64,000 bases of DNA from Schmidtea polychroa (Eukaryota), in NCBI GenBank assembly GCA_044892525.1, contig CM097885.1, forward strand, positions 23,190,001-23,254,000. Reading direction: 5' to 3'. Both the position numbers and the translations under genes were made by a program. Within the stretch, counting starts at the first letter, position 1. Each line of letters opens with the position of its first letter. Shown in pieces: positions 460-55,708 of the stretch. Below the pieces are notes generated by a model. It saw nothing but the letters and a program-made list of their open reading frames with translations. It was not told the DNA's origin and made no database searches.

Positions 460-1316
460 AGTAGATGGATTGGGCACCGCTAGCACAGTACCCCCCCCCC
501 TCCCCCCGTCGGTAAGATTTTCAAAAATATTCTAAGTCTAAAAGTACATTTTTTTCAAGGTCAAAGTTAAACAAAGACATATGACTCATCAAGGTCATTG
601 AAACAAAGACCATGACTCATCCAATGACTCATCAAATTTCCCAAGGTCATTTAAACAAAGACTATGACTCATCAAGGTCATTTTCAAGGTCATATGACTC
701 ATAATATGACTCATCAAGGTCAAAAAATTTTCTCAAGGTCATTTAAACAAAGGCCATGCCTCATCAAGGTCATTTTCAAGGTCACATGTCTCATACCATG
801 ACTCATCAAGGTCATTTTCAAGGTCATATGACTCATCCGATGAGTCATAAAAATTTTCAAGGTCATTTAAACAAAGACCATGACTCATTCAAGGTCATTT
901 TCAAGGTCATATGACTCATTCAAGGTCATTTTCAAGGTCATATGACTCATTCAAGGTTATTTCCAAGGTCATTCTCAAGGTCATATGACTCATACTATGA
1001 CTCATCAAAAAATTTCAAGGTCATATGACCCATACGATGACTCATCAACATTTTTCAAGGTCATTTTCAAGGTCGCATGACTCATCCAAGGTCATTCTCA
1101 AGGTCATATGAGTCATCGCGATGAGTCATCAAGGTCATATTATTATTTTTAAAAATATTATTATTTTTATTATTATTTTTAAAAAATATTATTATTTTTA
1201 ATTTTTTCAAAGTTCCCGTCAACGAAAATTAATAATCGATAGCTCATTTTAAAGCTCAATCCAAGGCCTTTCGAATGAGCCATATATCTTGTTATTAAGA
1301 TTATTATTTCTAAAGA

Positions 1317-1377
<61 letters not shown>

Positions 1378-1555
1378 CTATATACACCGAGTCTATATAC
1401 TCCGTGTCTATCCGACAAAATATTTTGTCCCCCTATGGGTAATGCTCACAAGGGTACTGGTCACGCTCAACAAATCAACAAATCAACAAAACATACATTT
1501 ATTTAAACAATAAAATAATGTAAAATTAACAAAGGTAAACTAAATATTGATGTAC
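460..1555 (+). repeat. Left TIR of Polinton A with TGACTCA/CAAGGTCA arrays and an (ATT)n tract
   Basis: Reverse complement matches 17046-17843, with a different number of repeat units. Confidence 0.93.
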
Positions 1556-2001
1556 TACTATTCGCAGCAATATTGTTAGAAATTGGTAACGATGAATTGA
1601 TTTTCAGATATTCTATTGATCCTTTGATTGTTTGAATTTCTCTTAATAATAATTCAATCTTTTTTAACAAATAATCATGCTTCTTATCAATAATTTTCAT
1701 ATTCTTTTTATTTTCAGCAATAGAGTTATTGAAAACCTCAATATGATCAATCAATTTAATTTTTATATTTTGTATATATTCAAATGATAGTTCATAACTG
1801 TTTTCTAAATTCTCCAATCTTTGAGATATTCTTTTTCCTGGATGCTTTGACCATTTTGGTTTATCGAGAATATATAAAATATCCATCAACTTGGCAGTAT
1901 TCGGACAAACACATTGATTTATTAAAAGACTCCACTGTTATTGTTGTATTGTGTGAGCACACACTCGTTATAATAATTAGCAATATGAATATAGTTTTCA
2001 T
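1503..2001 (-). pseudogene. Frameshifted signal-peptide / coiled-coil / hydrophobic-tail protein
   Basis: ATG at 2001 gives MKTIFILLIIITSVCSHNTT...; a 1-nt frameshift near 1865 joins ORF 1503-1889, which ends NSSTSIFSLPLLILHYFIV. Confidence 0.6.
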
Positions 2002-2106
2002 GGTGTATCAAATCAAAACCTTTCTTTTACATTTATAGTCTATCAACCAATCAAAATCATACAGTATTAGTATAAATAAAACATCATATTTTAAATTATT
2101 GTAAAA

Positions 2107-2621
2107 ATGTCTAATTTTATGGAAAATCTTTTAAGAGAACTCGTCAACAAGAATATTATGGAAAGCCTCTGTTTCCTGGTCGATCGGACCGAAAAGATCA
2201 TAGAAGGTAATCACATTGATTATGATAATGTGATCAATTCCGATTGTCTCGAAACGAAGAAATTCTATTTTAATAGGATTTTTAACTACCTATAAGACGA
2301 GGAGATGAAGTGGACCCGAATACTAGTAGGGTTCGCTTATATGAAGATAATAATTGAAAAAAGTCTATGGGACTCCGAGCACTATTATCAGTGGTCTCAA
2401 GAAGTAATACTTTTATAATCTATATTTTATTAATATTTATTTTCTAGATAATCAAGTCAAAGTTTCAGCCATGGATTGAAGCCAATGGCGGATGGGGCGT
2501 GCTGAATCGACTCGCCAGAAATGCAAAGGAATTAGATCAACAGAAAATCAAATTTAAAAACTATATTAAACTTGCAACAGGTGTTGCTATTTTGTATGTT
2601 TTATGTCGGTTTTTTAAATAA
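2107..2621 (+). pseudogene. Bcl-2 family protein, two exons (intron 2404-2447), in-frame TAA at 2293
   Basis: BH1-like DEEMKWTRILVGFAY, BH2 PWIEANGGWGVL, C-terminal anchor LATGVAILYVLCRFFK. Confidence 0.85.
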
Positions 2622-2698
2622 AAATTAATATAGTTATTTTGTTTGATTTTTAAATAAAATTTTAAATAAATTTACAAACACTAATTAACTAAGATTTA

Positions 2699-3084
2699 TT
2701 AATTAACACATTCGCAGTCTTCATCTCCACATTTCATTATATTTTCAACGACATGATCAATACAATCATTCGTAATATTATCTTTAGATTCATCTTTAGG
2801 TTCCTCTTTAGGTTCCTCTATAGGTTCATCTATAGGTTCATAGATTTCCTCATCAATTTCTTGAGTATCGGTTTCTTGAGTTTCTTCCTCATCATCAAAT
2901 CCTTTATCTTGACTCTCAACTAACCAGCTGATATTTAAGGAATTTGTAATAGATAATATGTCCTCAATTTTCACACCAGATATTTCTGCTAACTTTTCCA
3001 ACAAAAAGTTGATTAAAAATTCTAAATAATAAATAATTCGGTAATTAATTAATCATGTTAACCTTTTTCTGCAGTCATTTTCAT
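2699..3084 (-). CDS. Acidic hypothetical protein, two exons (intron 3022-3062)
   Basis: GT-AG splice joins MKMTAEK to the ORF in frame; E/D-rich with a Cys-rich end. Confidence 0.6.
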
Positions 3085-3212
3085 CACTTTAAAACTAAAT
3101 TATAAGTTTGTTTATAGATTTTCTTTGTTAAATTTGCATGTCATTTGCATTTATGTTGCAATTAATAAAGAAAAAAAAACAAATCTGACTAATACATTTA
3201 TTAAATATAACA

Positions 3213-3623
3213 TTAAAATATTTGTGAAAGTCTAGCAGACATAATTTTCCAAATAGGAGAATATACATCATTATTATCAACTTTATATCCCTGGATTGCA
3301 ATTGTTATATACCTATTTTCATTTTCTTTGAAACTGATTTCATCAAAAGCATCATAAAATCTTGCATATCTATTTTTGAACCATGCATGTTGATTACACG
3401 ATAGATTCGAATCTATCCGTTTAAAAACATCATCAATAGTTTTGACATCAATCATTGAAAGCGTGCCGGATAAGAATTCAAATTTAGTTGGAATTAGCTT
3501 GACTGGTGCAACCAATTTCATATTGATTTCTTCTTTCAAAAAATACATTTTGTAGTTGTGGAACATTTGAACTCGTTGTACCATTTCTTTAGGTTTTTCG
3601 GTGCTTGAAATTTTCTTGGTCAT
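3213..3623 (-). CDS. Hypothetical protein, possibly OB-fold ssDNA-binding
   Basis: Clean 136-aa ORF with CCAAT and TATA upstream and AATAAA downstream; the fold is inferred only. Confidence 0.55.
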   Translation of the reverse strand: MTKKISSTEKPKEMVQRVQMFHNYKMYFLKEEINMKLVAPVKLIPTKFEFLSGTLSMIDVKTIDDVFKRIDSNLSCNQHAWFKNRYARFYDAFDEISFKENENRYITIAIQGYKVDNNDVYSPIWKIMSARLSQIF

Positions 3624-3851
3624 CGTGAATAATGAATAAATTTAAATGTTACAGGGTTTTTATACCTTTGACTCATGCCTATCAACCAATCAGATTATAG
3701 CATGTCTTTGTTTAAATTGCATTCAAAATGCATTGATGTTGCATTGTCACATGTTCTATTATTTTTATTAATGTTTTATTATTATTAATGTTTTATTATT
3801 TCTATTATTATTATTATTATTAATTTTTTATTATTAATGTTTTATTATTTC

Positions 3852-3884
<33 letters not shown>

Positions 3885-3901
3885 TTTATTATTACTATTT
3901 C

Positions 3902-3940
<39 letters not shown>

Positions 3941-3984
3941 TATTATTTCAAATATAAAAAAGATAAAACACAATAAAAATACAT

Positions 3985-4403
3985 TTATTGGTAACCTAAA
4001 TCTACAATCCGGGAGTAGTGAAACCTTCTCAGAGTTTTCACTAACTCCCATTCGACATATCGCCGATATCGATGGGCACAGCATGAGCATCCGATGATGC
4101 ACTGGTACTCCGGCTCCATTTGTTTGATGGTTCTGTTTATCTTTATATCCCACAAGAACTGGTGAAATACCTCCATTATTCTAATTTGAGTTGTGTAGAA
4201 AATGAGGTCCGGAATTATTTCTGCTTCTCGATCCTTGATAATTTCAATAATTTGAGGATAATAATATTTTATCCTATTGATCATAACTTCTAAATATTTT
4301 TCTAAAATAATAAATAGTAAATAATGTGAAAATAAAAAAATTAAAATTTACCATAATCGTCGATATCTTTCATGAGGTTTGCAGCGCTTGGTAATTTGTA
4401 CAT
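3985..4403 (-). CDS. Hypothetical protein, two exons (intron 4302-4351)
   Basis: MYKLPSAANLMKDIDDY splices in frame into ORF 3985-4284; Cys cluster CIIGCSCC. Confidence 0.6.
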
Positions 4404-4477
4404 GGTGTTGAAAAAATGAATCCTAAACAAAAAACCGTTTGTTTAAATCAATCAATAACCAATTAGAAATTAACCAA

Positions 4478-4915
4478 TTAGAAATCGACTAATGAAATTA
4501 TCTCATTTCGAACATTGTCAACAAATTCTCTATACTCCAAATTTCTCAACCCCAGCATGACAACCTTTCCACTAGCAAACACGTTGACACAAATAGGGTT
4601 ATATTTTAATAGTCTTAGTGCTGGAAACAATTCCGGTTCAAACATACAATCACATTTTTTCGACATGTTATATAGATTGATACTATGTCCCATATCCATA
4701 GTAACGGTAATTGATTGGATTGTAATATTATTTATTCGATATTGTAATTTATTAATATCCAAAGGTTTCTTACATCCCATGATTCTGCATTTACCAGTCT
4801 TGAAAAATATTATCGGATATTTCCCACTTCTATCGATAATTTGCTGGGGTTTCCCTGGTGGGAACCTCATATTCGATACATCAAAATTTCCTCGATAATT
4901 TATATTTGCTAACAT
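4478..4915 (-). CDS. TATA-binding-protein-like protein (two TBP repeats)
   Basis: FEPELFPALR...VNVFASGKVVMLG and IIFFKTGKCRIMGCK match the TBP repeat pattern YEPELFPGL...LIFxSGKxVxTG. Confidence 0.88.
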   Translation of the reverse strand: MLANINYRGNFDVSNMRFPPGKPQQIIDRSGKYPIIFFKTGKCRIMGCKKPLDINKLQYRINNITIQSITVTMDMGHSINLYNMSKKCDCMFEPELFPALRLLKYNPICVNVFASGKVVMLGLRNLEYREFVDNVRNEIISLVDF

Positions 4916-5014
4916 TATTAAATCATTTATGAAAATTAGTCTTTATATATAAATTGAGCACGAGTTCATTAAATCATCGAATATAAACAAATACACATTT
5001 ATAAAATCTTTGAA

Positions 5015-5641
5015 ATGGAATTAAGAAATGATGCTGTATACCAAATCGTTGGTCCGAGTGGTAGTGGAAAAACATTATTTGTTTGTAAATTACTAAAATC
5101 CAATTTATTCAAATCAAAATTCAACAGGATTTATTGGCATAGGGGTGCTGATGAAGAACATGGATTAACTCAATCAAGTTTCTGTAAATTAAAAAACATG
5201 AAAATAGTAAAGGGATTTGATAAAAACTGGTCCAGCCGATTAAAGAAGGGTGATGTCATTATTATTGATGATTTGTATCAAGAAGCTAATAAAGAAAAAG
5301 ATTTTAATAACTTATTTACAAAGATCAGCAGACATGTCGATGTAACAGTTATTTTCATAACACAAAATCTATTTCATCAAGGTGGGGCACATCGAACACG
5401 TAATTTAAATGTACAGTATTTAGTTATTTTCAAGAATCCTAGAGATGCAACAGTGATTGATTTTCTTGCACGTCAAGCATACCCTAACAATCGTAATTTT
5501 CTTATCAGTGCATTTCAAGATGCTACAAAAATACCTCATGGATATATATTTCTTGATTTCACACAACAATGTCCCGATGATTTACGAGTAAAAACAGATA
5601 TTTTCAACCCAAAAGGTGCCATGGTTTATAAACAAAGTTGA
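5015..5641 (+). CDS. A32/FtsK-like packaging ATPase
   Basis: Walker A GPSGSGKT, Walker B IIIDD, SRH and ITQ motifs. Confidence 0.93.
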   Translation: MELRNDAVYQIVGPSGSGKTLFVCKLLKSNLFKSKFNRIYWHRGADEEHGLTQSSFCKLKNMKIVKGFDKNWSSRLKKGDVIIIDDLYQEANKEKDFNNLFTKISRHVDVTVIFITQNLFHQGGAHRTRNLNVQYLVIFKNPRDATVIDFLARQAYPNNRNFLISAFQDATKIPHGYIFLDFTQQCPDDLRVKTDIFNPKGAMVYKQS

Positions 5642-5659
5642 AAACCTCTATGAATAATA

Positions 5660-5857
5660 ATGTTTCTAAAAGCAAGGGTGAAAAATATTAGGAAATTAAG
5701 AAAAAGTATTAGAAAGACTATTAAAGTTCCAAAGGTTCCACCAACAACTAGTTATACACCATCTAAAAAACTTGTAACTGAAAATTTCTCTGCAATGAAT
5801 CTTATTTCGAAAAATCCTAAACCTAAACGTAAAACCCGTAAAACCAGTAAAAAATAG
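5660..5857 (+). CDS. Small highly basic protein (candidate core protein)
   Basis: K/R-rich 65 aa within the structural cassette. Confidence 0.5.
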   Translation: MFLKARVKNIRKLRKSIRKTIKVPKVPPTTSYTPSKKLVTENFSAMNLISKNPKPKRKTRKTSKK

Positions 5858-5892
5858 TTAAAAATCATCGAAGTTTTCCATTTTTTAATGCA

Positions 5893-6159
5893 TTGTTAAA
5901 GGCCCCGAGTATGAAAAGAATGAATATATTGCAATCATTCCCAAATTTTGTTGTCGATGATTTACTCAATATTATACTTAAAGTAGTCAAAGGCAAAATT
6001 AAAATCAGTAAACATAGGAAACCATTATTATCTTTAGTAAATAATAAAAATCGTAAGCAAATGAGGAAAATTATATATAAACAACAAGGTGGATTTATTG
6101 GTGCCTTGATACCTCTGGCATTATCATTATTAGGTGGAGTTGTAGGAAATCAATCATAA
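5893..6159 (+). CDS. Basic protein with adenovirus pX-like hydrophobic tail
   Basis: Ends QQGGFIGALIPLALSLLGG; the start is uncertain. Confidence 0.6.
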   Translation: MLKAPSMKRMNILQSFPNFVVDDLLNIILKVVKGKIKISKHRKPLLSLVNNKNRKQMRKIIYKQQGGFIGALIPLALSLLGGVVGNQS

Positions 6160-6220
6160 ACAATGGGTGCTAATCCTTCATTGCCCGACATTAAATTTAA
6201 TTTTAAATCTTCTTGTTGTA

Positions 6221-6594
6221 ATGGAGAAGATTTGGACGAACCCAGAAGACGAAGCCGGTTTCGGTGGAGTGGCAAAATTAAACAAAAGAGTTCCGAATTC
6301 GAAAAAAGAAACCCAGATCAGCTTGCGTACAGTTTGAACAAACGATGCGGAAAAGATTTCCAACAAGAGCGTATAAAACATTTGGTATTGACGATTTATG
6401 GCAAATGGATTTGATGGAGATGATACCTTATTCGAAAATTAACAATGGGAATAAATATACTTTAACATGTATTAATGTATACAGCAGGTTTGCACGAGCA
6501 ATACCAGTCAAGGCAAAATCTGCAGAAGAAATGTCCAAGGCAATTAATATTTTATTTAAAGATGGACATCCTAATAACTTGCAAACAGATTTAG

Positions 6595-6680
<86 letters not shown>

Positions 6681-7264
6681 TTAGGTAAAGAATTCACTAC
6701 TCGGTACATTCTCAATACAAAGCTGCCCATGTTGAAAGATTTAATCGAACATTGAGAGATAGATTAAAGAAATTGTTCGTGCATCAAGGTAATAAAAAAT
6801 GGGTAAATGCTTTACTGAAAATAATAACAAGTTATAATCATTCATCACATCGAGGACTGAATGGATTGAGACCGGTTGATATTACATCAAAAACACCATT
6901 ATCTAAAAAATCTGTAAAAATTGCAAAACCTAAATATAAAGTCGGTGACCATGTTAGAATTAGTAAAATTAGTGCATCACCATTTATTAAAAATTTTGAT
7001 ACAAATTGGAGTGATGAAGTCTTTGTAATTTCAAAAATAAATACTAAACAGAATCCTGTAATGTATGTCATCAATGACAATGATAATAATATTGTACAAG
7101 GGAAATTTTATGAGCAGGAATTACAAGTCATTCCTCCCCCAAAAGTATTTAGAATTCAAAAAATATTGAAAACTAAAAAGGTCGGTAAGGATAAACAATA
7201 CTATATCAAATGGCACGGTTATCAAAACCCGTCATGGATATCGTCAAAAGACCTAGTAAAATGA
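6221..7264 (+). pseudogene. Retroviral-type integrase with chromodomain; intron 6595-6684; small deletions/frameshifts
   Basis: WQMDLM, QTDLG/KEF, HVERFNRTLR, C-terminal YYIKWHGY...SWI. Confidence 0.92.
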
Positions 7265-8265
7265 ATTTTTATATTATTTTACCTAGCAATAGCTGTCCAC
7301 TTATTCATCCAGATAATAAAGCCAGCAAATTCAGGGTCAATCTTCAAAATCCGATATATTTGGATAATAGCTGGGAAGTTGCTCTGTTGGATTTTACATT
7401 TGTATACCAAGCCTTTCCATTTTATAGTAAGGCTAAAATTGGATACAAAAAGAATGAGTGGCAGGATAGATTATTGTCTATGATCATTAATAATGCAGAT
7501 GATGAAGTTCGGTTGTCTAATTCAACTGATCCAGCTGTGAAATTGTATATTAACCATCCATATATAGTAGTTGAATGTAAACATTATCCTTTTACTGTAA
7601 CATTTGATAGTTTGGAAATGGCAAAACGATTGGAATTAAAAACCCAAAGTCATAAAGTTCTTTCCGATAAATTCACTGTGCTACGACCGGGATATTCCAA
7701 AACTGTACAGCGATTTGAACCAATTTTCTTTACAGTTTCATATCCGGGTATAACGTCTGGTACATTTGAGTTCAAAGATAATTTATACATTTCGAAATTG
7801 GATGAATTACAGACATATTTAAAACAAAGTGGTTTATTTAAATCATTGGAAATATCAGACAGATTCAAATTCAGTTTGAATCCCGAATTTACTGAAATTA
7901 CTTTTGATGCAGATCTAATAAAAACATTAGGATTATCAAAAGCAACATATGCTCAAGATGATCAAGGTACCCTAGCTCCGAAAATAATTAAACTTCACCA
8001 ACAAATGTTCATCTATAGTAATATTGTTGATCCTGTAATTGTTGGCGATTCTTTGGTCCCACTCCTGAAATCTGTTTGGATTGAAAAATATGAACATGAT
8101 GAAGTAGTCAATATAAATATCGATAATCCCATCTATTTACCTGTGTCAACCTCATGTATAAACAATATAGAAATAAATATACGTGATGATTCTGGTAAAT
8201 TAATCGCATTTCCAAAAGATTCAAAAACTCATTTAACATTACATTTTCGTAAAGTAGATGGCTAA
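7261..8265 (+). CDS. Minor capsid protein (penton)
   Basis: MNFYIILPSNS start; FIYSNIVDPVIVGDSLVPLL and IEINIRDDSG motifs. Confidence 0.85.
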   Translation: MNFYIILPSNSCPLIHPDNKASKFRVNLQNPIYLDNSWEVALLDFTFVYQAFPFYSKAKIGYKKNEWQDRLLSMIINNADDEVRLSNSTDPAVKLYINHPYIVVECKHYPFTVTFDSLEMAKRLELKTQSHKVLSDKFTVLRPGYSKTVQRFEPIFFTVSYPGITSGTFEFKDNLYISKLDELQTYLKQSGLFKSLEISDRFKFSLNPEFTEITFDADLIKTLGLSKATYAQDDQGTLAPKIIKLHQQMFIYSNIVDPVIVGDSLVPLLKSVWIEKYEHDEVVNINIDNPIYLPVSTSCINNIEINIRDDSGKLIAFPKDSKTHLTLHFRKVDG

Positions 8266-8623
8266 TTCGGATATTATAAGTATGTATAGTGGTAGCCAAT
8301 CTGGCGGTGAATTAACATATTTTATTGGTAAACAGTACGGATCAGGATAATTGAGAACAATTGGTAGATTTTCACTTCCTATTCTTAAACGTATTGGTAG
8401 TTTTGGTATGAAAACTGCTAAAGATGTTATTATGAATGAACAGAAAATATTACCATCTCTAAAATCAAATGCTTTAGCAGAATTAGGGAAAGTTTTACCC
8501 GGGGTTGCAGGTATGTTTCAAAAACCAGCTCCAGTTCCAGCTCATGCTCCAAAACGTAAAAGACATGGAATATCACGTATAAACAAACGAATGAAAGGCC
8601 ATGGAACTATATTTGCAAAATGA
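8258..8623 (+). pseudogene. Core-like protein with QxGG/QYGSG motifs, premature TAA at 8348
   Basis: MANSDIISMYSGSQSGGELTYFIGKQYGSG*LRTIGRF; the copy at ~39150 has Trp at the stop position. Confidence 0.7.
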
Positions 8624-9842
8624 TTTGTGGTAAATCTGAATTATGTATATTTGATAGACCGTCGCCCCAGGCTGTAATAGAATTTGGGGCGTTTGAGGAA
8701 GTTTTTCCAATGAATTCAATTACTGATAGTAGAAATGATATAGAGTTTTATATTAATGGTTCGCAAAATGAATATTTAGATTTGAACGATACTTTATTGA
8801 CTGTTCAGATCAAGGTTATAGATAAAGATAAAAAAGCTTTGGGTGATGCTGCTGATGCAATACCGAACAATTTCATGTTTCATACTCTTTTTAAAGATGC
8901 TGTGTTGGGATTTAATAATATCAAGATTGAAGGTGGTAATAATACATTCAGTCACAAGGCTTTGATAGAAACTATTTTAAATTACAATTCCGATACTAAA
9001 AATACATATCTTACTCCAATGGGATATGCTGCAACCGACGATGAAAGAAAAAAGTGGATTAAAGGCTCAAAAACATTCACCATGTGTTCATCGTTACAAC
9101 TCGATTTTATGGATCAACCGAAATATTTGCTTCCAGGAGTTAATGTCCACATTCAATTGAAAAGATCCGATTCTGCACTAACTCTTACTAGTGCTACAGG
9201 TGCACCAATATGTCAATTAGTTGATGCAAAATTATTGGTGAGAAAAGTACGAGTAGACCCCTCAGTATTAGCAGGTCATCAATTGGGTCTTAATTCAAAA
9301 CATGCAATTTATCCATTAAAAACAAAGGAAATTGTACAATTTGCTATTGCTAAAGGTGCTTCATCAGTCTATAAAGAACAAATATTTGGTGACAGAAGAA
9401 TGCCTAATTTTATTCTGATAACATTTCAAAGTGAAGCACAATATAATGGATCATATACTGCGTCCAGCTCAATTTTCAAAAACTTTAATGTTACATCATT
9501 GACTTTGTCGAAAAATACTGATTATAGAGAAACATATATTCAAGATTTCGAGAATTACAATTTCTGTGCGACATATATGCAGAGCATTGTTAGAAATCTG
9601 GGTTATTTAGATAAAAATTTGAATTGTGGAATAACTCTAGAAGATTTTAAAAGCAAATACCCATTTTTACATTTGTTTTAGCCCCTGATTTTGATTTAAA
9701 TCAAAGTCAATTACCTCAAAATGGAAATTTACGACTGGATATAAAGTTTGCAAAAGCTATTACTGAACCAGTACATGTTATAATATATGGAGTATTTGAA
9801 AATGAAGTTCAAATTACTGCAAATAGAACAGTGTTGGTATAA
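8620..9842 (+). pseudogene. Major capsid protein (double jelly-roll), frameshift near 9667
   Basis: KSELCIF, YLDLNDT, DFMDQPKYLLPGV; the shifted tail GNLRLDIKFAK...ANRTVLV ends at 9842. Confidence 0.9.
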
Positions 9843-10241
9843 ATGTATATTGAAACACAAAAAGTTGTCATGGAGTAAGTTGTTCTTTTAAACTCTGGAT
9901 TTATTTAAGTAGTTCTGTTCAGGTCAATAAAATCGGAAAACAGATATTGGGAAATGAATTTGTTGGAGTTTTTCCTCTAAATAAAATTCCATATTTGAGC
10001 AATAATCAAGCAATAATCATCAATACGCAATCGTCTCATCTTGGTGGAGAACATTGGATAGCTATATATGTGAAACCTGGTAAAATATTAGTGTTCGATC
10101 CTATGGGTTTTTATTACCCGGCTTTGTTGATATCAAAACTACAAACAATGGGGTAATAAAACTATGTTTCAAAATCCCTTGACCCAAACATGCGGTCAAC
10201 ATTGTTTAGCTTGGTTATTGTACAAAAAATTTGATGTTTAA
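9843..10241 (+). pseudogene. Adenain-like cysteine protease, disrupted
   Basis: GEHWIA (His), VFDPMG (Asp), and QNPLTQTCGQHC (Gln/Cys) in another frame. Confidence 0.85.
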
Positions 10242-10340
10242 AGAAAAAATGTTTAATAAATTTGATGTTTAATAAATGTATCCTTTCCTTTGTTGTTGTG
10301 TTATTATTAATATTATTATTAATATCATTATTAATATTAA

Positions 10341-10377
<37 letters not shown>

Positions 10378-10403
10378 ATTAATATTATTATTATTATTAT
10401 TAA

Positions 10404-10446
<43 letters not shown>

Positions 10447-10789
10447 GTGAAAAATATTATTATTTTTTAATTAATTTTATTATTATTCTAATAAATATTA
10501 TTATTTGTAACATAAAGACTGCCTTTGCCTGAGGCATGCACAGTGCAAGTTAACAAAGGCATGACTAACAAAGGCAGTCACATGTAATTCTGAGTGATTT
10601 ACATTACATACATGCATGCGTGTGATTGGTTGAGTGATTAAAATATTCAGTGTATATGTGTGTGTCTATATTCTCATTGGCTGGGACAGGAAAATATTCA
10701 TTCTCTTTATAAACATCGACAAATCTAAAATTTGTCACAATTATTTTAAAATTTTGAAATTTCAAAATCAATTTGATTAATATTCTAAA

Positions 10790-12046
10790 ATGGAAAAGAA
10801 CGATAATAATCGAGCGTTGAGAGGTCTTTTGACTAATGGTAAATTATTATTATTTTTATTCTATTTTATTTAGATCCTTTCAACTGGTTCGCAGTTACCG
10901 AAGACGAATCAATGTTGAACGTGGATCGGATTTTCGGTAAATTTATCATTTTAATTTTTATTAAAATTAATTTTATATATATTTTAGAACCTATTATTAT
11001 TATTAGCGATGATGAAGATTTAATATTTATTGAAGAAATTAATGCCGAAGATGAATCGATTTTAAATATGGAAAATATCGGTAAATTTATCATTTTAATT
11101 TTTATAAATATTAATTTTATATATTTTAGAACCTATTATTATTAGCGATGATGAAGATTTAATATTTATTGAAGAAATTAATGCCCCAGTTAATGATGTT
11201 GGGCAAAACAAGGTTTTCAAAGAAAAAAGTAAATTTATTTTACTTTAGTATTTTATTTTTAAAAATTTTATTTTTTAGCGTTTAATTTTGATATTGATGC
11301 CGAGGAAGTGGATGAAATAAATGATTCAGATAATACCCTCACTTCTATTGAGGAGGTGGACGAAATGAATGCCCTCACTTCTATTGAGGAGGACTCTGAT
11401 TCCGATATGGAATCGAAATGTAAGACTTATTTATTTTTTATATATTTTTATATATTTCTTTAAAATTTTATAAGCACTTTTTAAATATTTTCATATTAAT
11501 TTCATTATTTTCTTAAAAACTTTTATAAATTACTTATGATGAATTTATGAAGAAAATGATTTATGAAGATAATGATTTATGAAAAAAATGATTTATGAAG
11601 AAAATGACGAAAATTATGAATTTATGTTGAAAATGAATTATGAAGAAAATGGTGAAAATTATGAATTTATGTTTGATGAAAATGATTTATGAGGAAAATT
11701 ATGTTGAAAATAATTATATGACGAATATATGATGAAAACGATTTATGAAGAAAATTATGTTGAAAATAATTATATGACAAATATATGAATTTATGATGAA
11801 AATGATTTATGAAGAAAATGACGAAAATATGACGAAAAATATGAATTTATGATTATATGACGAAAATTATGTTGAAAATAAATATGACGAAAATTATGAA
11901 TTTATGATGAAAATTATGAATTTATGAAGTAAATACTACGTTTCTGAAAATAATGAAATTAATATAAAAATATTTAAAAAAGTGATTACGAAACTATAGT
12001 TATAAAATAATTCTTGTAGTTTGCAATGTGCATCTACATTAGTTAA

Positions 12047-12094
<48 letters not shown>

Positions 12095-12169
12095 CTGACC
12101 CTTCTACTATAGTCTACAGTAAGCATGTAGCTATATAGTAGTCTGCAGTGAGCATGCAGCTACTTCTCT

Positions 12170-12243
<74 letters not shown>

Positions 12244-15200
12244 CTTACTCGTCTAATATTTAACATATTCATATAATAATAATCTGACCCATATACTAAA
12301 ATCTCTCTAATATTCTCTCGAATATATTAACCTATTTTCTATAAGGATTTATCATCATTTGTTATATAGTTCATTTGAATTAAATAACAAATGATGATAA
12401 ATCCTTATCGATGTAACAATTAATAACAATTAGAAAAAGAGAATAAAACTTTAATTTTATTATTTAACAGGTAGACTATACCCAAATTATTGTCAATCCT
12501 CAATTGGACATAACGATAAATGTCATCGCACCATGAAAAAGTATTACAGAAAGACGTTTAATTCAGTCAACTTTTTTATATGCCCCAAATGCGTGACTAG
12601 CGAAAAAATACAATATAGGGAATTTTTTAATAAACATCATAGTCACTTAGGGCAATTTTCGATTTCAAAAAATGTTTTATTTAAAAAAATAAATAAAAAT
12701 AAAAAAAAATTACAAAAAAATTTAGAAAAAAATATTATTAAAAAAAATATTAAAAAAGAAAAAACAGATACTATTAAAACAGATACTATTAAAAAAGATA
12801 CTATTATTATTAAAAAAGATTTAAAAAATATTAAAAAAAATATTATAAAAGAAAAAACAGATACTATTAAAACAGATACTATTAAAAAAGATACTATTAT
12901 TATTAAAAAAGATCCTATTATTATTAAAAAAGATTCTATTAAAAGACCTGCTGGTTTAATTAAAAATTATATTCCTAATAAATTATCGCGACCTGAAGTG
13001 ATAGTCATCAGCAAAGATGAATGTGTAGCTTCAACATCTTTCACACAACACGCACCCATTACACAACACGCACCCATTACACAACAAGAAGTGATAGTCA
13101 TCAATGATGAATGTGTAGCTTCAACGTCTTTCAACATATGTCAAATAGGCGGCTCTTTGTTTGAACCTATGGTTGAATCCGATTTGAACGGATCGCGAAA
13201 AACTTTAAAATTGGATATTAGAAATCAAAACTTGGTAAAAATAACCCTAACATCAAAAATTGAAGAAAGATTAATAGAGGAAATAGAAAAGATGGGCAAT
13301 GTAAAAATTCAATTTACAATTTTAATTAAATTTGAAAAAGATGGGGAGATCCGGGATAATTATTTTTCAAACAATGCGCAAGTTTTTTCAGCAAATTTTA
13401 TAAACGAGGGGGTGAGCAAATTAAATGAAAAGATTGAGCAATTCACCTATTTAGGAAGCGGGTGGCGCGTAATGAATATTTTAGAGATAGATTTTATTTT
13501 AACGAAATACGCACCCGTTAGTAGATTATCCGGACATAGCTATATAAAAACCCCATCAGCATTAAAATTAAAACATGCAATAATTAATGTAAAAAACAAC
13601 GACCATAAGTGTTTCTTATATAGCATTCTTGCACTTTTAAAAAGAGAAGAAATAGGTCGTAATCACCAAAGAGCCGCCAAATATATAGAATTTTTACCTC
13701 TATTAAATTATGATGAAAACACAGATTGCCCGATGAGGTTATGCAACATTCCCAAATTTGAAAGGAAAAATCGCGATTTAAACATGAGCATAAACGTTCT
13801 TTCGTATAATCCAGCCAGTTCTGATTGTGATATTTCTCAGGATTATGTAGCTCACCACCCTCATCTTAATATCATACATCGTTCCAAGGTTATAGATGGT
13901 AGGCCGATTTATTTATTACTTTTGAGTAATAAAGATAAATATCATTATACGGCAGTGACAGACTTGGACAAATTAATGAATTGTCATTTAAATGAAAATG
14001 TAAATGTTCAAATAAGGTGTAACTGGTGCCCACATTGTTTAAATGGCTTTAGATATAAGAATGCTTTCGATCAGCATGTTGCTCTATGCTGTAAAAATCA
14101 GACTGGCACAACCTTGTATACACTTCCTAAAAATAAGGATTTATTATTCACAGATTACGCAAAAACCGTTACACCTCCCTTCGTAATTTATGCCGATTTT
14201 GAATCGGTTTTACCAGAACATGAAACATATCATCAAATACATTTACCCATATCAGCAGGTCTTTTATTAATTAATAATTATACAAACACTAAATTTTATT
14301 ATTATTTTTTTGGACCTAATTGTATTTTGGATTTTTTGAGGAAAGTGGAGGAAATTGCTGTCACAATTGTCCTGCCATATTATGAACTCGAAGGTCATAA
14401 AGGTATGTCTACTTTGTCTTTTGCTCAGGAGCGTGCCTTTCGATCTACCACTATTTGTTATTTGTGTAAAAAAGCTATTATTAATCCTGTGAGAGATCAT
14501 TGCCATTTTACAGGTAGATATGTCGGAGCGGCATGTAGGAAATGTAATGTCTCTCGCAGGATTAATAAATTGTTACCTGTTGTCTTTCATAATTTACGAG
14601 GCTATGACCTCCACCATATTTTAAAACATGGTCTCAGTGATTTTCCCCTTTGGGAACTTAAAATTATACCTACCTCTACAGAAAAATTTATATCTTTAAT
14701 TGCATATATTAACAAATTGCCTGTTCGTTTTATTGACAGCATGCAATTTGTTAATTGCTCTTTAGCCAAAGCTGTGAAAACCTTAACTACTTTTCCGTTA
14801 ACTTCGTCTGTCTTTCAAGGGTCGATGATTCACTCTAAAGGTATCTTTCCATATAATTTCGCTACTTCTTTGGATGTTCTTGAATCGACTTTAGAATTAC
14901 CTCCTATTTGGTCTGATGTTACGGAAGATCAGTACGCTGAGGCTCAACTAATGTGGAGTCAGCATAACTGTAATAATTTGTTATATTATATGTTAATCTA
15001 CCTAAAATTGGACGTATACCTCCTCGCAGACTATTTTCAGCAATTCCGCGGTAAGGCAATTGCTTACAATGGTCTGGATCCTCTTAATTTCTACGGGATT
15101 CCCGGTATGTCATGGGCCTCAGCGCTTATGACATTAACGGAACCCATAGAACTTTTGCAGGACATGGAAATGTATAATTTCTATGAGGGAGGTATCCGGG

Positions 15201-15874
15201 GTGGGTTAACATTTGTTAACAAACATTACACGGCTACTTCAGATGATACAGAATTATTGTACATTGATATAAATAATCTGTATGGTTGGGCTCTTAGCCA
15301 AAATCTTCCGTATGGTGATTTTTCTTGGGTGAATAATAACTTAAATGATGTTTTACTTGAATGTATGAACACGGATATTGATAACCTTCCATATGGGTAT
15401 ACTATGGAGGTCGATATCGATATTCCGGAATGTATGCATGACTTTTTGAATGATTTTCCGATTGCGCCGGAAAAGTTGTGCCTGCCTAATTCAAAAGTTG
15501 AGAAGCTGATGCTCACGCATTGGCCAAAGAGGAACTATGTTCTTCATTGGAGGCTTCTCAAATTGTATATAGAATTAGGTGCGGTTGTTGTAAATATTCA
15601 TAGATGTATAAAGTTTAAACAAGGACCTATCTTTAAATCCTACATAGACACCAACACCACTTTACGATCTCAGTCTACTAGCGAGATATATAGGGACTTG
15701 TTTAAATTGTATAATAACAGTCTGTACGGTAAATCCGTTGAAAATCTGAAAAAACGAATGAATTTGAGGTTGTGTAATTCATCCGAAAAGATGATAGTAT
15801 ACTCCTCAAAGCCGACTTTCAGAAAGTCTATAAGAATCGATAACGATCTGATTGTATTTATATATACATATTGA
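10790..15874 (+). pseudogene. Protein-primed DNA polymerase B with five predicted 5' exons; C-terminally truncated
   Basis: Exons 10790-10838, 10874-10936, 10988-11080, 11130-11228, 11279-11419, 12471-15874; YADFES, FHNLRGYD, YIDINNLYG and KLYNNSLYGK present; DTDS motif absent. Confidence 0.9.
11530..11930 (+). repeat. Degenerate tandem repeat (GAAAATGATTTATGAA-like) in the large pPolB intron
   Basis: Visible reiteration of the unit. Confidence 0.8.
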
Positions 15875-16039
15875 ATAAAATTTGTAATCAGATTTTTTTT
15901 TTTAAATTTTTTAAGTATTTGTTGTTTTATTATAATTTTTATATTTAATGGTGATTTTTATATAGTCTGCAGTGAGCATGCAGCTATATCAGTATTTTTT
16001 TTATATAGTCTGCAGTGAGCATGCAGCTATATCAATCAC

Positions 16040-16088
<49 letters not shown>

Positions 16089-16103
16089 CTTTAAACAGTT
16101 TGC

Positions 16104-16134
<31 letters not shown>

Positions 16135-16147
16135 TAATAATAATAAT

Positions 16148-16214
<67 letters not shown>

Positions 16215-16363
16215 CTTTAAACAGCTTGCAAGGTTACTAGTCATGCTTATTATACATTTGATGGTTACAATTTCTACATTTTGAAAACTATATTTTGATT
16301 GGCTATCACAATTTTATAAATGTAAGAACAAAAGTAATTTAGTTATTAAGAAATTTATTACTA

Positions 16364-16998
16364 ATGATTTCTATAAATAAAACTGATGAATGTGTAACAC
16401 ATTTGGTAACTTTATTATTTTGTCAATATTTTTTTATATATACCATTTATAGCAAGGAAGTCCTACTAGAAATAAGGAAAAATTATGTCCAACCTATTCT
16501 GAAATTTCATTGAAATTTTTTAACACAGTTGAAGATTTTATAAATAATCATGATACTTACAGTGATAAGCAACTCATAAATATTTTAAAGATTTTCAAAC
16601 ATTCCTCTATTGAATATTTGTTTGATTTATTTAATTATGAGAAATCCATTTTAAAGTTATCTTGTTATTTAATGTACTTAGAAAAAATATCAGTAAACAA
16701 TGATTCACTGAATGAATACTTTTGGAGTTGTATGCATTTAAGGTTGAAACCTAGATATAGTAGATTGATTTATGATTGGATAGCAAAAACCGATTTGATT
16801 GAAAATAAGCTAACGAAAAAACTGAACGATGTTAAGAAAAGGTATTTGACTTGTTCAATTTGTAAAGAAAATCGAGTTTCGGTTTTGTATTTACCATGTG
16901 GTCATGTAATTGTTTGTTCTAAGTGTCACGAGAAGAATGTTCGCAAGTGTCAAGCCTGTTCAACACTGATTAATGAATATCATACTATATATATTTAG
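16364..16998 (+). CDS. IAP-type C3HC4 RING protein, two exons (intron 16406-16452)
   Basis: CSICKENRVSVLYLPCGHVIVCSKC...CQAC...IYI at the extreme C-terminus; the upstream ATG exon splices in frame. Confidence 0.85.
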
Positions 16999-17045
16999 TT
17001 TACCTTTGTTAATTTTACATTATTTTATTGTTTAAATAAATGTAT

Positions 17046-17199
17046 GTACATCAATATTTATTTACCTTTGTTAATTTTACATTATTTTATTGTTTAAATA
17101 AATGTATGTTTTGTTGATTTGTTGAGCGTGACCAGTACCCTTGTGAGCATTACCCATAGGGGGACAAAATATTTTGTCGGATAGACTCGGTGTATATAG

Positions 17200-17251
<52 letters not shown>

Positions 17252-17843
17252 TCTTTAGAAATAATAATCTTAATAACAAGATATATGGCTCATTCGAAAG
17301 GCCTTGGATTGAGCTTTAAAATGAGCTATCGATTATTAATGTTTGTTGACGGGAACTTTGAAAATAATTAAAAATAATATTTTTTAAAAATAATAATATG
17401 ACCTTGATGACTCATCGCGATGACTCATATGACCTTGAGAATGACCTTGGATGAGTCATAGGATGACTCAGATGACCTTGAAAATGACCTTGAAAATTTT
17501 TGATGAGTCATAGCATGAGTCATATGACCTTGAAAATTTTTTGATGAGTCATAGTATGAGTCATATGACCTTGAATGAGTCATATGACCTTGAGAACGAC
17601 CTTGAATGAGTCATGGTCTTTGTTTAAATGACCTTGAAAATTTTTATGACTCATCGGATGAGTCATATGACCTTGATGAGTCATAGTATGAGTCATATGA
17701 CCTTGAAAATGACCTTGTTGAGTCATATGTCTTTGTTTAAATTTACTTTTAGACTTAGAATATTTTTGAAAATCTTACCGACGGGGGGAGGGGGGGTACT
17801 GTGCTAGCGGTGCCCTGTGCCAGCGGTGCCCAATCCATCTACT
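17046..17843 (-). repeat. Right TIR of Polinton A
   Basis: Inverted copy of 460-1555. Confidence 0.93.
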
Positions 17844-18206
17844 TTCCTCGTATAATAAAATAACGTTTGCAGTATTTCAGTTTTACAATATCACTACAAG
17901 TAAAATTGAAAGAAAGTACTTTCAAATCAGTGACAAGATGGTTTAGGTCTATTATCACCGAAACTCGATTATTAAGTTTATTTATGATTAGCGTACACAT
18001 GAGTTAACTAGAAAGAGAAGAAATAAAGGACATTATTGAAAATTATATTAAGATTTTGCTGGCAAGATAGACATTATTAATATTATATACTTATTAAACT
18101 ATATTTACAGAAAGTATTACTAAAACCTTTTTTAACCAATATGTAATAATTTCAATTATCAAAGGAAGATAACAACATGTATTCGGTATCCATCAATCAA
18201 TTAGAC

Positions 18207-20780
18207 CAGGGATGGCAATTACATGGCACGCGTGCCAAACTTGGCACGCAGACAAAAAACTTCTGGCACTCTAAGAAATTTAAAAAAAGAAGTAGAAAAA
18301 ATTCTTATTATAAAATAATTACTGCTTTTTAAAAAAAAATTTGGACCCAAAATTTTAATCAACGGCTTTGAATTGAATTCTATATTTTTTTCTCTAGTTG
18401 GCTTTGCGTTATTAAATAACGCAATTAATTATTAAATTTAGTTTATTTTGGCACTTTGATAAAAACCTATTTGCCAAAATAACGGTTATTTTGTACATAC
18501 GTATATGGTTGTGTTATAATTCTTGTATATTCTTACATCAGTTTTTAGTTTTGTTTTAACTTGTGCAGTTCAATAAAATTTGTGTTTAATTTTAAATAAA
18601 ATTTATTTTTTGCTGAATTAAAATGGTACCAAAAAAACCAAAACTACAAGATATTCGTAGCTTTGTACTCTCTTGGACTGCTGATTACGGTTTTGTTAAA
18701 CATGGAGATAAAAGTCGGTGCGGTCTGTACTCTGAAATTATTGTATGTCGAACGTCTTCTATTAAGCGACATTTTGAAACCAACCATAAAGAAATTGCCA
18801 AAAAAAATATTGAAGAAAGAAAAGAACTAATTTCTCAACGATTAAAGATAGCTGAAAATCAATCGAATTCATTATCAAAATTTGTAAAAACCAACAGCAA
18901 TGTTACAGAAGCTAGTTTTGAAATTTCTTATTTGATTGCTAAGCAATCAAAACCATTTTCTGATGGAGAGTTTGTAAAAACGGTTATGTTAAAAGCGGCC
19001 GAAAGTTTGTTTCAAGATTTTAATCATAAAGAAAAGATTATTCAAAGAATTCGAGAAGTCCAGCTAAGCCGAAATTCAGTTAAAGATAGAATTTTAAAAA
19101 TAAGTGCGAATATTTCTGATCAACTTTACAACGATGTTAATAGCTGTGACTACATTTCAATTTGCCTCGATGAATCAACAGATATTAAGTCATCTGCCCG
19201 ATTAGCAATCATTGCACGTTATCCGAAAGATAATGAAATGCACGAAGAACTTTTAAAATTAGCAAATATCCCAGAAAGAACAAGAGGTAGTGATATTTGT
19301 GAAGTTGTATTCAATGAATTAAACAAACTTAAAATAAATATTAAAAAAATCATTTCTGTAACGACAGATGGATCTCCTAATAGGACTGGACCAGAGATAG
19401 GTTTTGTTAATTTATTTCAAAACCTAGTTGGTCATCCAATAATAGGCTTTCATTGCATTATTCATCAGCAAGTTCTTTGTGCAAAATTCGGAACTAGCGA
19501 TTTCAAAGAAATATCAGAACAAGTTAATAAAATCATAAATTTTGTAGTTGCACGCGACATGCATAAAAGACAATTTAAAAAACTTTTAAATGATATGGAT
19601 TGCGAATACGATACTCTCTTAATGTGCAATAGTGTACGTTGGCTAAGTCGAGCGACATCCTTAGAACGATTTGTGAATTGCTTGGAAGAAATTCGACTTT
19701 TTTTACACGAATTCGACAGGGATCGTTTTAAAGAATTATATGATACAGAATGGTTAACAAAATTAATGTTTTTTACCGACGTAACATTACATTTAAACGT
19801 TCTTAATAAAAAATTGCAAGGACGAGGAAAAACAATTGAAGTTATGTTTGGATTGATAAAGGGGTTTGAAATTAAATTAGATATTTTTGCTAGAGATATC
19901 GCATCTGGAAAACATAATAATTTTCCGAAACTTAAAAGTTTTTTAAATGAATCTACAATTTTCAAAAAAACTAATTGGAATTTTAATTACGAATTTTCTA
20001 AAGTTCTTGAAACTATAAAAGAACAATTTTCAAATCGATTTAAAGATTTTAAAAGAATTGATAGGCTGTTGAAAATTGTAAATTATCCGGACTTATTCGA
20101 TATACAGGATTTCGATAACAACCTTATTAATTGGATAAAATTAGAAAATTTAGAAATGCAGACAGTAGATTTGCAATCTAATCCTATTTGGACACAAATA
20201 TTTGTGAATATGCGAAAAAATATAGAAGAATTGGAATATCATCGATTGTCACTGGATGGAGAGTCGGAATGCCGCATTGAAAACTTGATATTGGAAGTGT
20301 GGAATAGTATGCCAGAAGCATTTGCTTCTGTTAAAAAATTAGCAATCGCAATGTTAACCATTTTCGCATCCACTTATTACTGTGAGAGTCTTTTTTCTGT
20401 ACTTAATCATGTACTATCAAAGACAAGAAACAGATTAACAGAAGAAGACTCAGCAGCTTGTATTACCTTACAATCGACAACATACCATCCTGATATTAAA
20501 AACCTTGCAAATAATATGAAGCAAAAAACTTCTAACAAAATTTAAGAATTTTTTATTAAATTTATTATTAAACTTTATAATTTTTTTTACTATTTCTTTA
20601 TATTGAATAAATATTATCACATGAACTCAAATATTGAAATTTATTTCTGTTTTCTTGTGAATAAAAAAATGAATAAAAAATGTACATATAACAAATAAAA
20701 GTTACGAGGGCACGCGAAAAAAATTGAATTTAAATTTAGTTTATTTTGGCACTTTGATAAAAACCTATTTGCCATCCCTG
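18207..20780 (+). mobile_element. Full-length hAT transposon (Buster/SPIN-like)
   Basis: TIR CAGGGATGGCAA; 8-bp TSD AATTAGAC at 18199-18206 and 20781-20788. Confidence 0.96.
18623..20545 (+). CDS. hAT transposase, uninterrupted 640 aa
   Basis: LDESTD, TTDG, CIIH, RW and CESLFS catalytic motifs; the BED finger lacks one Cys. Confidence 0.93.
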   Translation: MVPKKPKLQDIRSFVLSWTADYGFVKHGDKSRCGLYSEIIVCRTSSIKRHFETNHKEIAKKNIEERKELISQRLKIAENQSNSLSKFVKTNSNVTEASFEISYLIAKQSKPFSDGEFVKTVMLKAAESLFQDFNHKEKIIQRIREVQLSRNSVKDRILKISANISDQLYNDVNSCDYISICLDESTDIKSSARLAIIARYPKDNEMHEELLKLANIPERTRGSDICEVVFNELNKLKINIKKIISVTTDGSPNRTGPEIGFVNLFQNLVGHPIIGFHCIIHQQVLCAKFGTSDFKEISEQVNKIINFVVARDMHKRQFKKLLNDMDCEYDTLLMCNSVRWLSRATSLERFVNCLEEIRLFLHEFDRDRFKELYDTEWLTKLMFFTDVTLHLNVLNKKLQGRGKTIEVMFGLIKGFEIKLDIFARDIASGKHNNFPKLKSFLNESTIFKKTNWNFNYEFSKVLETIKEQFSNRFKDFKRIDRLLKIVNYPDLFDIQDFDNNLINWIKLENLEMQTVDLQSNPIWTQIFVNMRKNIEELEYHRLSLDGESECRIENLILEVWNSMPEAFASVKKLAIAMLTIFASTYYCESLFSVLNHVLSKTRNRLTEEDSAACITLQSTTYHPDIKNLANNMKQKTSNKI

Positions 20781-22451: not shown

Positions 22452-23578
22452 CTAATTCTTTATTTTTGAGTCCTTGTTCTCTTTAACAATTGCAAATATA
22501 GATGTGCAATAAATCAAACAATCATTTGCTGATATTCTCTTATTTAAATTATAATCCAGCATTTTGTACAATAGTGGTAATAACTTATCATTCTCATCTA
22601 TACCTAATTTTAAATGCAATTTTTTCTCCGGAATTTCAATATTGTCTATTTTAATTTCGCAATTCATAATTTTCTGTTCTTCGTCATTTGGAACGCCCAA
22701 AATTTCAAAAATCTTTATTAACTGATCAGTTTCATTTTCTCCTTTGAAGATTACATCAAATAGAATCATTTCCATGAAAACAATAGCCATTGACCAGATA
22801 TCTATCGAAAGATTATACATTTGATTTTTACATAACAACTCTGGAGCTCGGTAATATCTAAAATTTATTCATTTTAAAATTAAAAAAAAAACAATGAAAA
22901 AAAAAATTTTTAAAAATTTATATAAAATAATTAATACCTTGATCCAACATTGACTGCATTCGATGAACCGGATTCAATTAATTTTGAACATCCAAAGTCA
23001 GCAATTTTAATTAAATCTTGATCAATATCTACTAAAATATTTAGACTTTTAATGTCTCTATGTCCAAAACGTCGAGAGTGCATAAAATCTAAGGCAGATA
23101 GCAAACTAAACATGAAATATTTCCTAGTTTCATTCGATAGAATAATTTTCTCATATCGCAATCTTTGAATTAAGTTATACAAAGATTCTGGCATCAATTC
23201 CATTACTAAACATTGTTTTATACCGTTTTTTGTTGCGTAATTAAAATGATATTTTAAACTAAGAATATTTCTATGACGATCACTAAGTAATGAATGGATT
23301 TCTCTTTCTCGACCGTTTCTATCACTTCTTTTTATGGCCAATATTTGAATCTTTTCTTCATCCAATGAATATTTTGTAGGCAATATTTTTACGTAAGCAG
23401 CAAACACATTTGCGAATGTTCCGGAACCAATATCTTTAATACATTTGACTTGCAATAGAACCTCGGAATTAGAATGTATCACATAAGATTTATATCTGTT
23501 TGAAAATTGAGAAAATGTATTTGTTGTGATTTGACTATGCGTTCTACTGAAATTTGATCGAAAACTGTATACGCTCAT
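22452..23578 (-). CDS. Divergent GSK3-like CMGC Ser/Thr kinase, two exons (intron 22858-22937), 348 aa
   Basis: GSGTFANV, AIK, HRDIKSLN, DFG, spliced SRYYRAPEL, IDIWS. Confidence 0.88.
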
Positions 23579-38400: not shown

Positions 38401-38743
38401 TAAATATTCAGTTTGCGAACAATTAATATACAACTCAATATAATTTCTACTATCAGTAATTGAATTCATAGGAAATACTTGCTCAAATGCCCCAAATACA
38501 ATTACAGCCTGGGATGATGGTCGATCAAATATACATAATTTAGATTTATCACAAATCATTTTTCAAATATAGTTCCATGTCCTTTCACTCGTTTGTTTAT
38601 AAGTGATATTCAATGTCTTTTACGCTTTGAAGCATGAGCTAGGGTTGGGGCTGGGTATGTATCTTTTTGAAACATACTTACAACCCATGGTAGAACTTTC
38701 CATAATTCAACTAGAGCATTTTATTTTAGGGAAGGTAATATTT

Positions 38744-39060
38744 TGTTGGGTATTTGTGAAAGTCGGTAACCTTGTCTGACTCCTTCGTGTCCTTTGAAAC
38801 TAAGTTAAACACCCAACACAAAATCTTTATTCGAGACTAATACAATTACACTTTTGTTACACTTTTTACTGATTCCACCACACTTGATACAACCACTTTT
38901 GCACCTTTCAATACTACTGGAAATCTTACGCAGTGATGAATCTTCCAATGGGAGATGTCCCTTTCTGGTACCCTAAATTATTCAATTGACACTAACTTCA
39001 AAGTTTTCTTTGTTACTCTCACTAAATTTCTCATTTCCTTTTCTTCGAACAACTGGCGGC
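38744..39060 (-). mobile_element. Truncated LTR-like insertion in the core gene
   Basis: Starts TGTTGGG and shares CTGACTCC..CGTGTC..AAATCTTTATT with the solo LTR at 45455. Confidence 0.5.
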
Positions 39061-39754
39061 TCATAATCACGTATTTAGCAGTTTTCATACCAAAACTACC
39101 CATACGTTTAAGAATAGGAAGTGCAAATCTCCCAATTGCTCGCAACCATCCTATCCGTACCGTTTATCAATAAAATATGGTAATTCACTGCCGGATTGGC
39201 TACCACTATACATACTAATAATATCAGAATTAGCAATTTACTTTACGAAAATGTAATGTCAAATGAGTTTTTGAATCTTTAAGTAATTTTAAGTAATTTT
39301 CCAGAATCATCTCTTATATTTATTTCTATATTGTTTACATAAGATGTTGAAACAGGCAAATACATGGAATTTCCTACATTTGTACAACTTCGTCTTGTTC
39401 ATGTTTTTCAATTCATATTGATTTCAATAAAGGAACACTAGAATCACCAACAATGACGGGGTCAATGACATTACTGTAAATGAACATTTGTTGATGAAGT
39501 TTAATTATTTTCGGAAATAAAGTACCTTCATTAATTTTACCATCTTTAACATACATATTTTTGGGTAATCCCAAAGTAGTTTTCAAGTTATTATCAAAAT
39601 GGACACTTGAGAGTGTCTTTAATTTTAAATTTAAATTTTTTATTTTTCGCAAGCTCAACCGATTCGAAAATCATTGCACAATTTTCGATAAATAAGTTTT
39701 TAATTTCATTATATATTTCATTATCTATTTCAGTTACATATAAATCTTCTTTAA

Positions 39755-40050
39755 CCACTTGCGCTATATTGACATGCCAGGCACGTCTTGATGATTTTTT
39801 TCAGAACTGCAAGTGATGTGTATACCACGTCGATAGTATTTGTCGCAAAAACAAAAACGACGTGTTTGCAACGTTGTTGTTGTGAATAATTATTTATATT
39901 CGTGTAAATCTTTTATGTAAGACCCTACCCTCGCGCTAAGCACTGGTCAAACCTCTGAGCTCGCTGACGCGGTGAGGCGTCGATGCCTTACGATACTTTA
40001 TATAGTAGAGCGCGGCTCAGCTACCGAAAATTAAATCATAGCGCAAGTTG
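39755..40050. mobile_element. piggyBac-type MITE, copy 1
   Basis: TIR CCACTTGCGCTAT (one mismatch), TTAA TSD, near-identical to 49848-50143. Confidence 0.92.
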
Positions 40051-55691: not shown

Positions 55692-55708
55692 TATTTTAAC
55701 ATTTTAAA

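Follow-up and report, generated by a model that had tools for sequence, protein, structure and literature searches.

How does a pure run of ATT units come to lie inside the catalytic motif of an integrase gene, and is it an intron? The question is raised by a locus of Schmidtea polychroa (GenBank assembly GCA_044892525.1, contig CM097885.1, positions 23,190,001 to 23,254,000), of which the whole stretch of 64,000 nucleotides, here called the window, was analyzed; all coordinates below are those of the window. A sequence-only reading had proposed an intron born by duplication of a proto-splice site and microsatellite growth, possibly serving as a splicing switch on integration. The answer that we tentatively favor, and rate at somewhat less than an even chance, is an insertion into a staggered break at a proto-splice site, which a sub-lineage of the element would have inherited, with poor splicing and with movement by integrase acting in trans.

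The integrase gene lies in the following element.

460 to 17844, no strand assigned: full-length, defective Polinton/Maverick with ends AGTAG...CTACT and the 6-bp target duplication TTCCTC at 454-459 and 17845-17850.

Judged by its predicted gene content, the element belongs to the Polintons/Mavericks, with an rve integrase and PolB together with packaging ATPase, adenain-type protease, and capsid genes. Pfam matches name Pox_A32 (ATPase) and Peptidase_C5 (protease), and the capsid-like ORFs, unnamed by Pfam, pair with syntenic ORFs of relatives. The polymerase-like ORF has a 43% match to a relative's 1148-aa ORF and zero Pfam matches; from motifs known to us, we take it to be pPolB. The terminal repeats differ by four substitutions per ~410 aligned bases and several small indels, and this near-identity points to a fairly young insertion. 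The element is nevertheless a dead copy, its target duplication perfect and its terminal repeats nearly identical although integrase, capsid, protease, and polymerase are all broken: the major capsid gene has a frame change near 9660 and the protease gene one near 10153, and the polymerase is shorter than that of relative L005 by ~210 C-terminal residues.

The window contains 19 ATT/AAT tracts, 14 of which are inside the element. Each terminal repeat has an (ATT)n tract at the matching place (1317-1375 and 17202-17251), and the difference between them, 19 units against 16, indicates that tract lengths drift. A direct repeat with (AAT)n tracts flanks the polymerase frame, whose end is missing (12108-12283 and 15961-16174). 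The element also carries a TBP-like gene (4478-4942, minus strand; Pfam TBP, E 3e-15), which relative L005 has too, and a RING-finger gene (16453-16998, plus strand). Elsewhere in the window are a second, different Polinton (about 53.5-64 kb), in which a single open frame (55700-57118, plus strand) joins a phospholipase A2-like domain and an integrase; a 747-aa frame (41091-43334, minus strand) with a Monjiviricetes-type fusion glycoprotein domain (E 3e-45), adjoining a decayed second capsid gene set (37722-40578) that comes without an integrase part; and hAT transposase frames at 18617-20545 and 31264-33734.

The integrase gene of this copy is damaged on both sides of the insert.

6221 to 7264, plus strand: integrase pseudogene (rve core and chromodomain), in fragments in three frames.
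6300 to 6350, plus strand: two frameshifting deletions 5' of the insert, at about 6313 and 6343, absent from sister copies.
6688 to 6700, plus strand: frameshifting loss of ~15 codons directly 3' of the insert, with residues 134-148 of relatives unmatched.

Pfam names rve and chromodomain on the fragments, both under the curated cut-off, and the fragments share 72-81% identity with full integrases. Beyond the insert itself, the gene thus has three more breaks, all frameshifting. The sequence-only reading saw the insert correctly but overlooked the division of the gene among three frames and the loss of ~15 codons after the insert. An integrase is unobtainable from this copy with or without splicing, and the insert is functionless here because the gene is broken both 5' and 3' of it.

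The insert has the following parts.

6597 to 6680, plus strand: perfect (ATT)28 tract, read from the sequence.
6590 to 6597, plus strand: left copy of the direct repeat TTTAGGTA, with its core 6-mer TTAGGT at 6591-6596; carries the candidate donor AG/GT.
6680 to 6687, plus strand: right copy of TTTAGGTA, with its core at 6681-6686; carries TTTTAG as candidate acceptor and, in AG/GTAAAG, a second donor-like site.
6595 to 6684, plus strand: candidate intron of 90 nt, phase 1, GT...AG, 98% AT, of a length divisible by 3, stop-free, and without a branch-point motif.

The insert is placed two codons past the Asp of the integrase QTD. When relative P0001 is aligned with retroviral integrase cores, QTD falls on the TD of the catalytic motif, and we take this residue to be the second catalytic Asp. 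The flanks of the tract are identical at an offset of 90 across 8 bp, so the duplication of TTAGGTA described earlier is real and part of a longer repeat. Also borne out is the claim that the unspliced insert stays in frame, since read-through meets no stop. Nine 90-nt registers are equivalent, and 6595-6684 alone has GT...AG ends. A comparable flanking repeat is expected in 0.18% of random flank pairs drawn from the window. It is present at 2 of 16 long tracts there, the second case lying within a degenerate tandem array, and a unique-sequence flanking repeat is, within the window, a feature of the integrase tract only. Rfam gave zero matches across the window, and the insert folds worse than all 200 of its shuffles; it does not have the conserved secondary structure of a self-splicing group I/II intron or structured RNA.

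The site is uninterrupted in all 32 related loci that span the insert position (of 37 loci in all), and none of these 32 has six or more ATT units there. In relative proteins the catalytic motif is contiguous in 110 of 120, and 41 read QTDLGKEF. The relatives compared reach at most about 81% identity, and prokaryote-style gene calls cannot render intron-bearing genes whole; because protein sets are blind to such genes, it is the related DNA loci that carry weight for the derived state. By comparison with these loci, the insert is a derived state. Among the best 150 matches of a search of 50% representatives, the motif was contiguous in 97, went unrecognized by the pattern in 43, and continued otherwise in 10, none of them with an Ile run. 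Viral contigs yielded no integrase relative, and a 15-nt pattern found 120 loci in them, none of which had integrase context or ran on into ATT; a longer site pattern had 0 matches, as did prokaryote genomes. In P0059, a gene model of other source, IIII-GK directly precedes the equivalent integrase segment, which may be chance or a similar tract.

Two proteins of the same family were found, P0132 and P0121, which form one cluster and each have an open N-terminal half of 130 residues. P0132 runs from QTDLG into an Ile/Asn/Phe-rich stretch and a stop, with 89 of 92 residues equal to the read-through of the window; its tail has no second occurrence within the window. P0121 (core, 83 of 84 identical) skips from the insert codon to the final 14 residues that the gene encodes. 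This jump, equivalent to window positions 6596 to 7220, occurs at a shared GGT and could be a deletion or an unusual splice. It fits, by sequence, a 3-nt microhomology deletion; a splice product is less likely, the landing point in the window having CG rather than AG and no T-rich stretch. Both proteins could be assembly chimeras, being known here from protein alone. Each of the three copies of this family that were seen is broken at the insert site or just past it. The insert thus appears to be common to sister copies and hence not private: that it might be unique to this dead copy had been named beforehand as the refuting case, and a sister protein instead seems to break at the same codon. 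An assembly artefact is an unlikely source, since the sister protein seems to carry the interruption too.

Public sequencing runs were compared as contigs, over a stretch ending at 6597. In one run, 15,108 contigs fit the 898 bases 5' of the tract, and such runs show the integrase family to be large and varied. In run X11, whose RNA status is a guess, one of the contigs listed crosses the site and ends 27 letters past 6597; X11 contigs are free of the upstream integrase deletions of this copy. If, as we assume, the assembly word size is 31 letters, an assembly that enters (ATT)28 must end at +27 or +28, which has a probability of ~1.2% by chance. From the end of this single contig, its overhanging letters unseen, the tract seems to have been present unspliced in these molecules; the same end would be expected from DNA or antisense RNA. 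Among the 5'-half variants listed, 6 of 13 are synonymous versus 20% expected (p 0.03), and this copy alone has one of the 13; this synonymous lean suggests that selection has acted on the integrase of at least some of the family.

Whether the insert is spliced can be judged against other intron-like segments of the element and a host intron.

10839 to 11278, plus strand: four short T-rich GT-AG intron-like segments (35, 51, 49, and 50 nt), all phase 1, with open mini-exons between, from an ATG at 10790.
11420 to 12470, plus strand: probable longer phase-1 intron entering the polymerase frame, read by hand; contains two (AAT)n tracts.
4302 to 4351, minus strand: intron-like segment of 50 nt within a small gene that the element carries.
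22858 to 22937, minus strand: reference host intron of 80 nt in a protein-kinase gene, with donor GTATTA and acceptor TTTTAG.

The segments at 10839-11278 are the probable leader of the polymerase gene, a link that we infer. From 10790 to 12470 (plus strand) there are five mini-exons with phase-1 host-type introns between them, and exons 3 and 4 represent one exon-intron unit duplicated in tandem. At the level of sequence, the insert has the host-type GT donor and AG acceptor of a spliceosomal intron, and the presence of five or six short phase-1 host-type introns in the element makes it plausible as one.

These observations bear on a second reading, a close rival of the favored one, which we regard as possible, if doubtful: a working young spliceosomal intron, efficiently removed, in the active master of the family, with this copy as a dead descendant. 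Its sole GT-AG register is phase 1, as in the other introns of the element, and its donor hexamer GTATTA and acceptor TTTTAG are identical to those of the kinase-gene intron; against it, the donor in the element's other five short introns is GTAAAT. A branch motif is present in the host intron (at -26) and in three of those five, so that its absence from the insert is matched in the other two. An intron scan of the element gave 7 matches (the insert, the five short segments, and one nested alternative) where 40 block shuffles averaged 0.55 and relatives, over 117 kb, had 2, but its thresholds were chosen after the introns had been seen, and it missed the host intron. The synonymous lean among the listed 5'-half variants favors a working intron, as do the open N-terminal halves of P0132 and P0121, neither of which is contiguous at the site, and the finding of no empty-site copy among these two proteins. 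New introns of Daphnia resemble it in size and in their high AT content, and often lie between repeats of 4-12 bp (PMC4202315), but 25 of 27 such introns contain a stop according to the same source, whereas the insert is stop-free and a multiple of 3. The X11 contig end looks unspliced, none of the copies seen combines the tract with an intact second half, and intact vertebrate Mavericks are described as intronless (PMC8097293). The fuller claim, that an abundant animal Polinton family very recently gained a working trinucleotide-repeat intron in its integrase catalytic core, with integration dependent on host splicing and tract-length variants recording the birth of the intron, seems to us rather unlikely.

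As to origin, flank repetition amounts to 5+3 bases at the insert and 0-1 at the other intron-like segments of the element, and this uniqueness argues for a recent target duplication. The earlier account of intron birth keeps its proto-splice-site (AG/GT) duplication, its intron-like ends, and its absence from relatives, but has to give up slippage growth from duplication alone: 90 minus 8 leaves 82, which 3 does not divide, and fewer than two repeat units would have been present at the junction. A threshold of 3-4 units has been reported for trinucleotide slippage (PMC3812793). The filler probably came in as a block. The insert is compatible both with break repair and with reverse transcription of a tail only. 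For the latter, a 6-8 bp repeat surrounds a minus-strand (TAA)n, as expected of a target duplication around a simple-repeat LINE tail. LINEs with (TAA)n tails exist, among them the I factor; within the window, no donor element with such a tail was identified.

The favored reading, insertion into a staggered break, would run as follows. In the ancestor of the sub-lineage, a staggered cut would have opened the integrase gene at TTTAG/GTA, the anatomy of which is seen, and been filled with a ready-made ATT run, the overhang of 6-8 bp being duplicated in the process. The source of the filler may have been a nearby ATT tract that was copied or an RNA with a (TAA)n tail that was reverse-transcribed; later slippage may have altered the filler's length. 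Because the duplicated target contains AG/GT, the insert has both a donor and an acceptor, and with them the resemblance to the phase-1 introns of the element that is seen in the sequence. Splicing would probably be poor, and the retained insert would inactivate the enzyme by placing ~30 hydrophobic residues next to the catalytic Asp. The lineage would probably have continued to spread through integrase from sister elements, and the tract may have become a fragile point from which later deletions started. In favor of this reading are the X11 contig end, the breaks at or near the site in all three family copies, the deviating donor GTATTA, and the near-identical terminal repeats of a copy whose genes are broken; the helper that it calls for, a same-family copy with an empty site, was not among the two proteins found.

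A third reading, which we consider improbable, makes the insert private to this dead copy, either a LINE insertion consisting of the tail alone or a scar of repair that formed with its neighboring deletion, the sisters having broken independently at a cleavage hot spot or appearing so through misassembly. The polarity of the insert suits target-primed reverse transcription, in which the plus-strand end ...GGTA could pair with UA in a (UAA)n tail; tracts that consist of the tail alone can be left by L1 (PMC3812793), and this copy has many private deletions, one of them at most 10 nt from the insert. However, both of the same-family proteins break at the insert codon, one into an ATT-like run, and the X11 contig, from copies without the upstream deletions, still ends at the predicted place.

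The insert might also be a footprint of the element's own integrase, left with filler after an element had inserted between 6-bp duplications and been lost, and it can be parsed exactly as TTAGGT-(ATT)28-TTAGGT, that is, as a 6-bp duplication (the Polinton signature, and the length of this element's own target duplication) around whole units; zero traces of Polinton ends lie between the repeats, the terminal ATT tracts are ~860 and 590 nt inside the ends, and we give this very little credence. Least probable is the regulated splicing switch suggested earlier, turning integration on or off by tissue or state, for although the retained insert stays in frame and planarian Polintons are transcribed during differentiation (PMC8532177), there are zero signs of regulation, all 32 related loci lack the insert at the site, and the copy is dead and makes no integrase either way.

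The origin of an intron is seldom caught in the act, and in a multi-copy family a single event is recorded in many dated alleles. A single genome and a single RNA data set could tell if a duplicated proto-splice site and a pure microsatellite suffice for an intron, and the same data could relate splicing to tract length. The insert joins the signs of spliceosomal introns in the Polintons of this host, against the usual intronless picture. If unspliced, it is an ordinary lesion of a non-autonomous lineage.

The largely open-access literature searched held no report of a microsatellite intron in a Polinton integrase; further related literature is found in PMC10748475, PMC10558129, and PMC11410931. 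The element resembles animal Polintons/Mavericks (adintoviruses) in its integrase, pPolB, ATPase, protease, and capsid-like genes, inverted repeats at its termini, and target duplication of 6 bp (PMC8097293; PMC8502044). In vertebrates 96% of Polinton loci are degraded and the intact ones are intronless, whereas this element has several host-type phase-1 intron-like segments (PMC8097293). Dinoflagellate Polinton-like viruses likewise carry introners inside a Polinton-type element, but the insert lacks a multi-copy introner body and terminal repeats (PMC11957031). Ginger1 integrase-like transposases also have introns within an integrase-family gene, although theirs are old and conserved (PMC2836005). 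Tail-only L1 insertions, which are pure poly(A) tracts, share with the insert a simple-repeat tract between short target duplications (PMC3812793). Where introns are gained by AGGT duplication, whether tandem duplication or a transposon insertion brings it about, both splice sites come from the duplicated target, as they would here, but the middle of the insert is (ATT)n only, neither a duplicated exon nor a recognizable transposon (PMC3443670). The new introns of Daphnia pulex, which arise at staggered double-strand breaks (PMC4202315; PMC3443670), are cDNA-proven, mostly have in-frame stops, and are not pure microsatellites, whereas the insert is a candidate in a virus-like element; the two are alike in size (mean, 78 bp in Daphnia), AT richness, GT-AG ends, and a repeat (4-12 bp in Daphnia) shared with the adjacent exon (PMC4202315).
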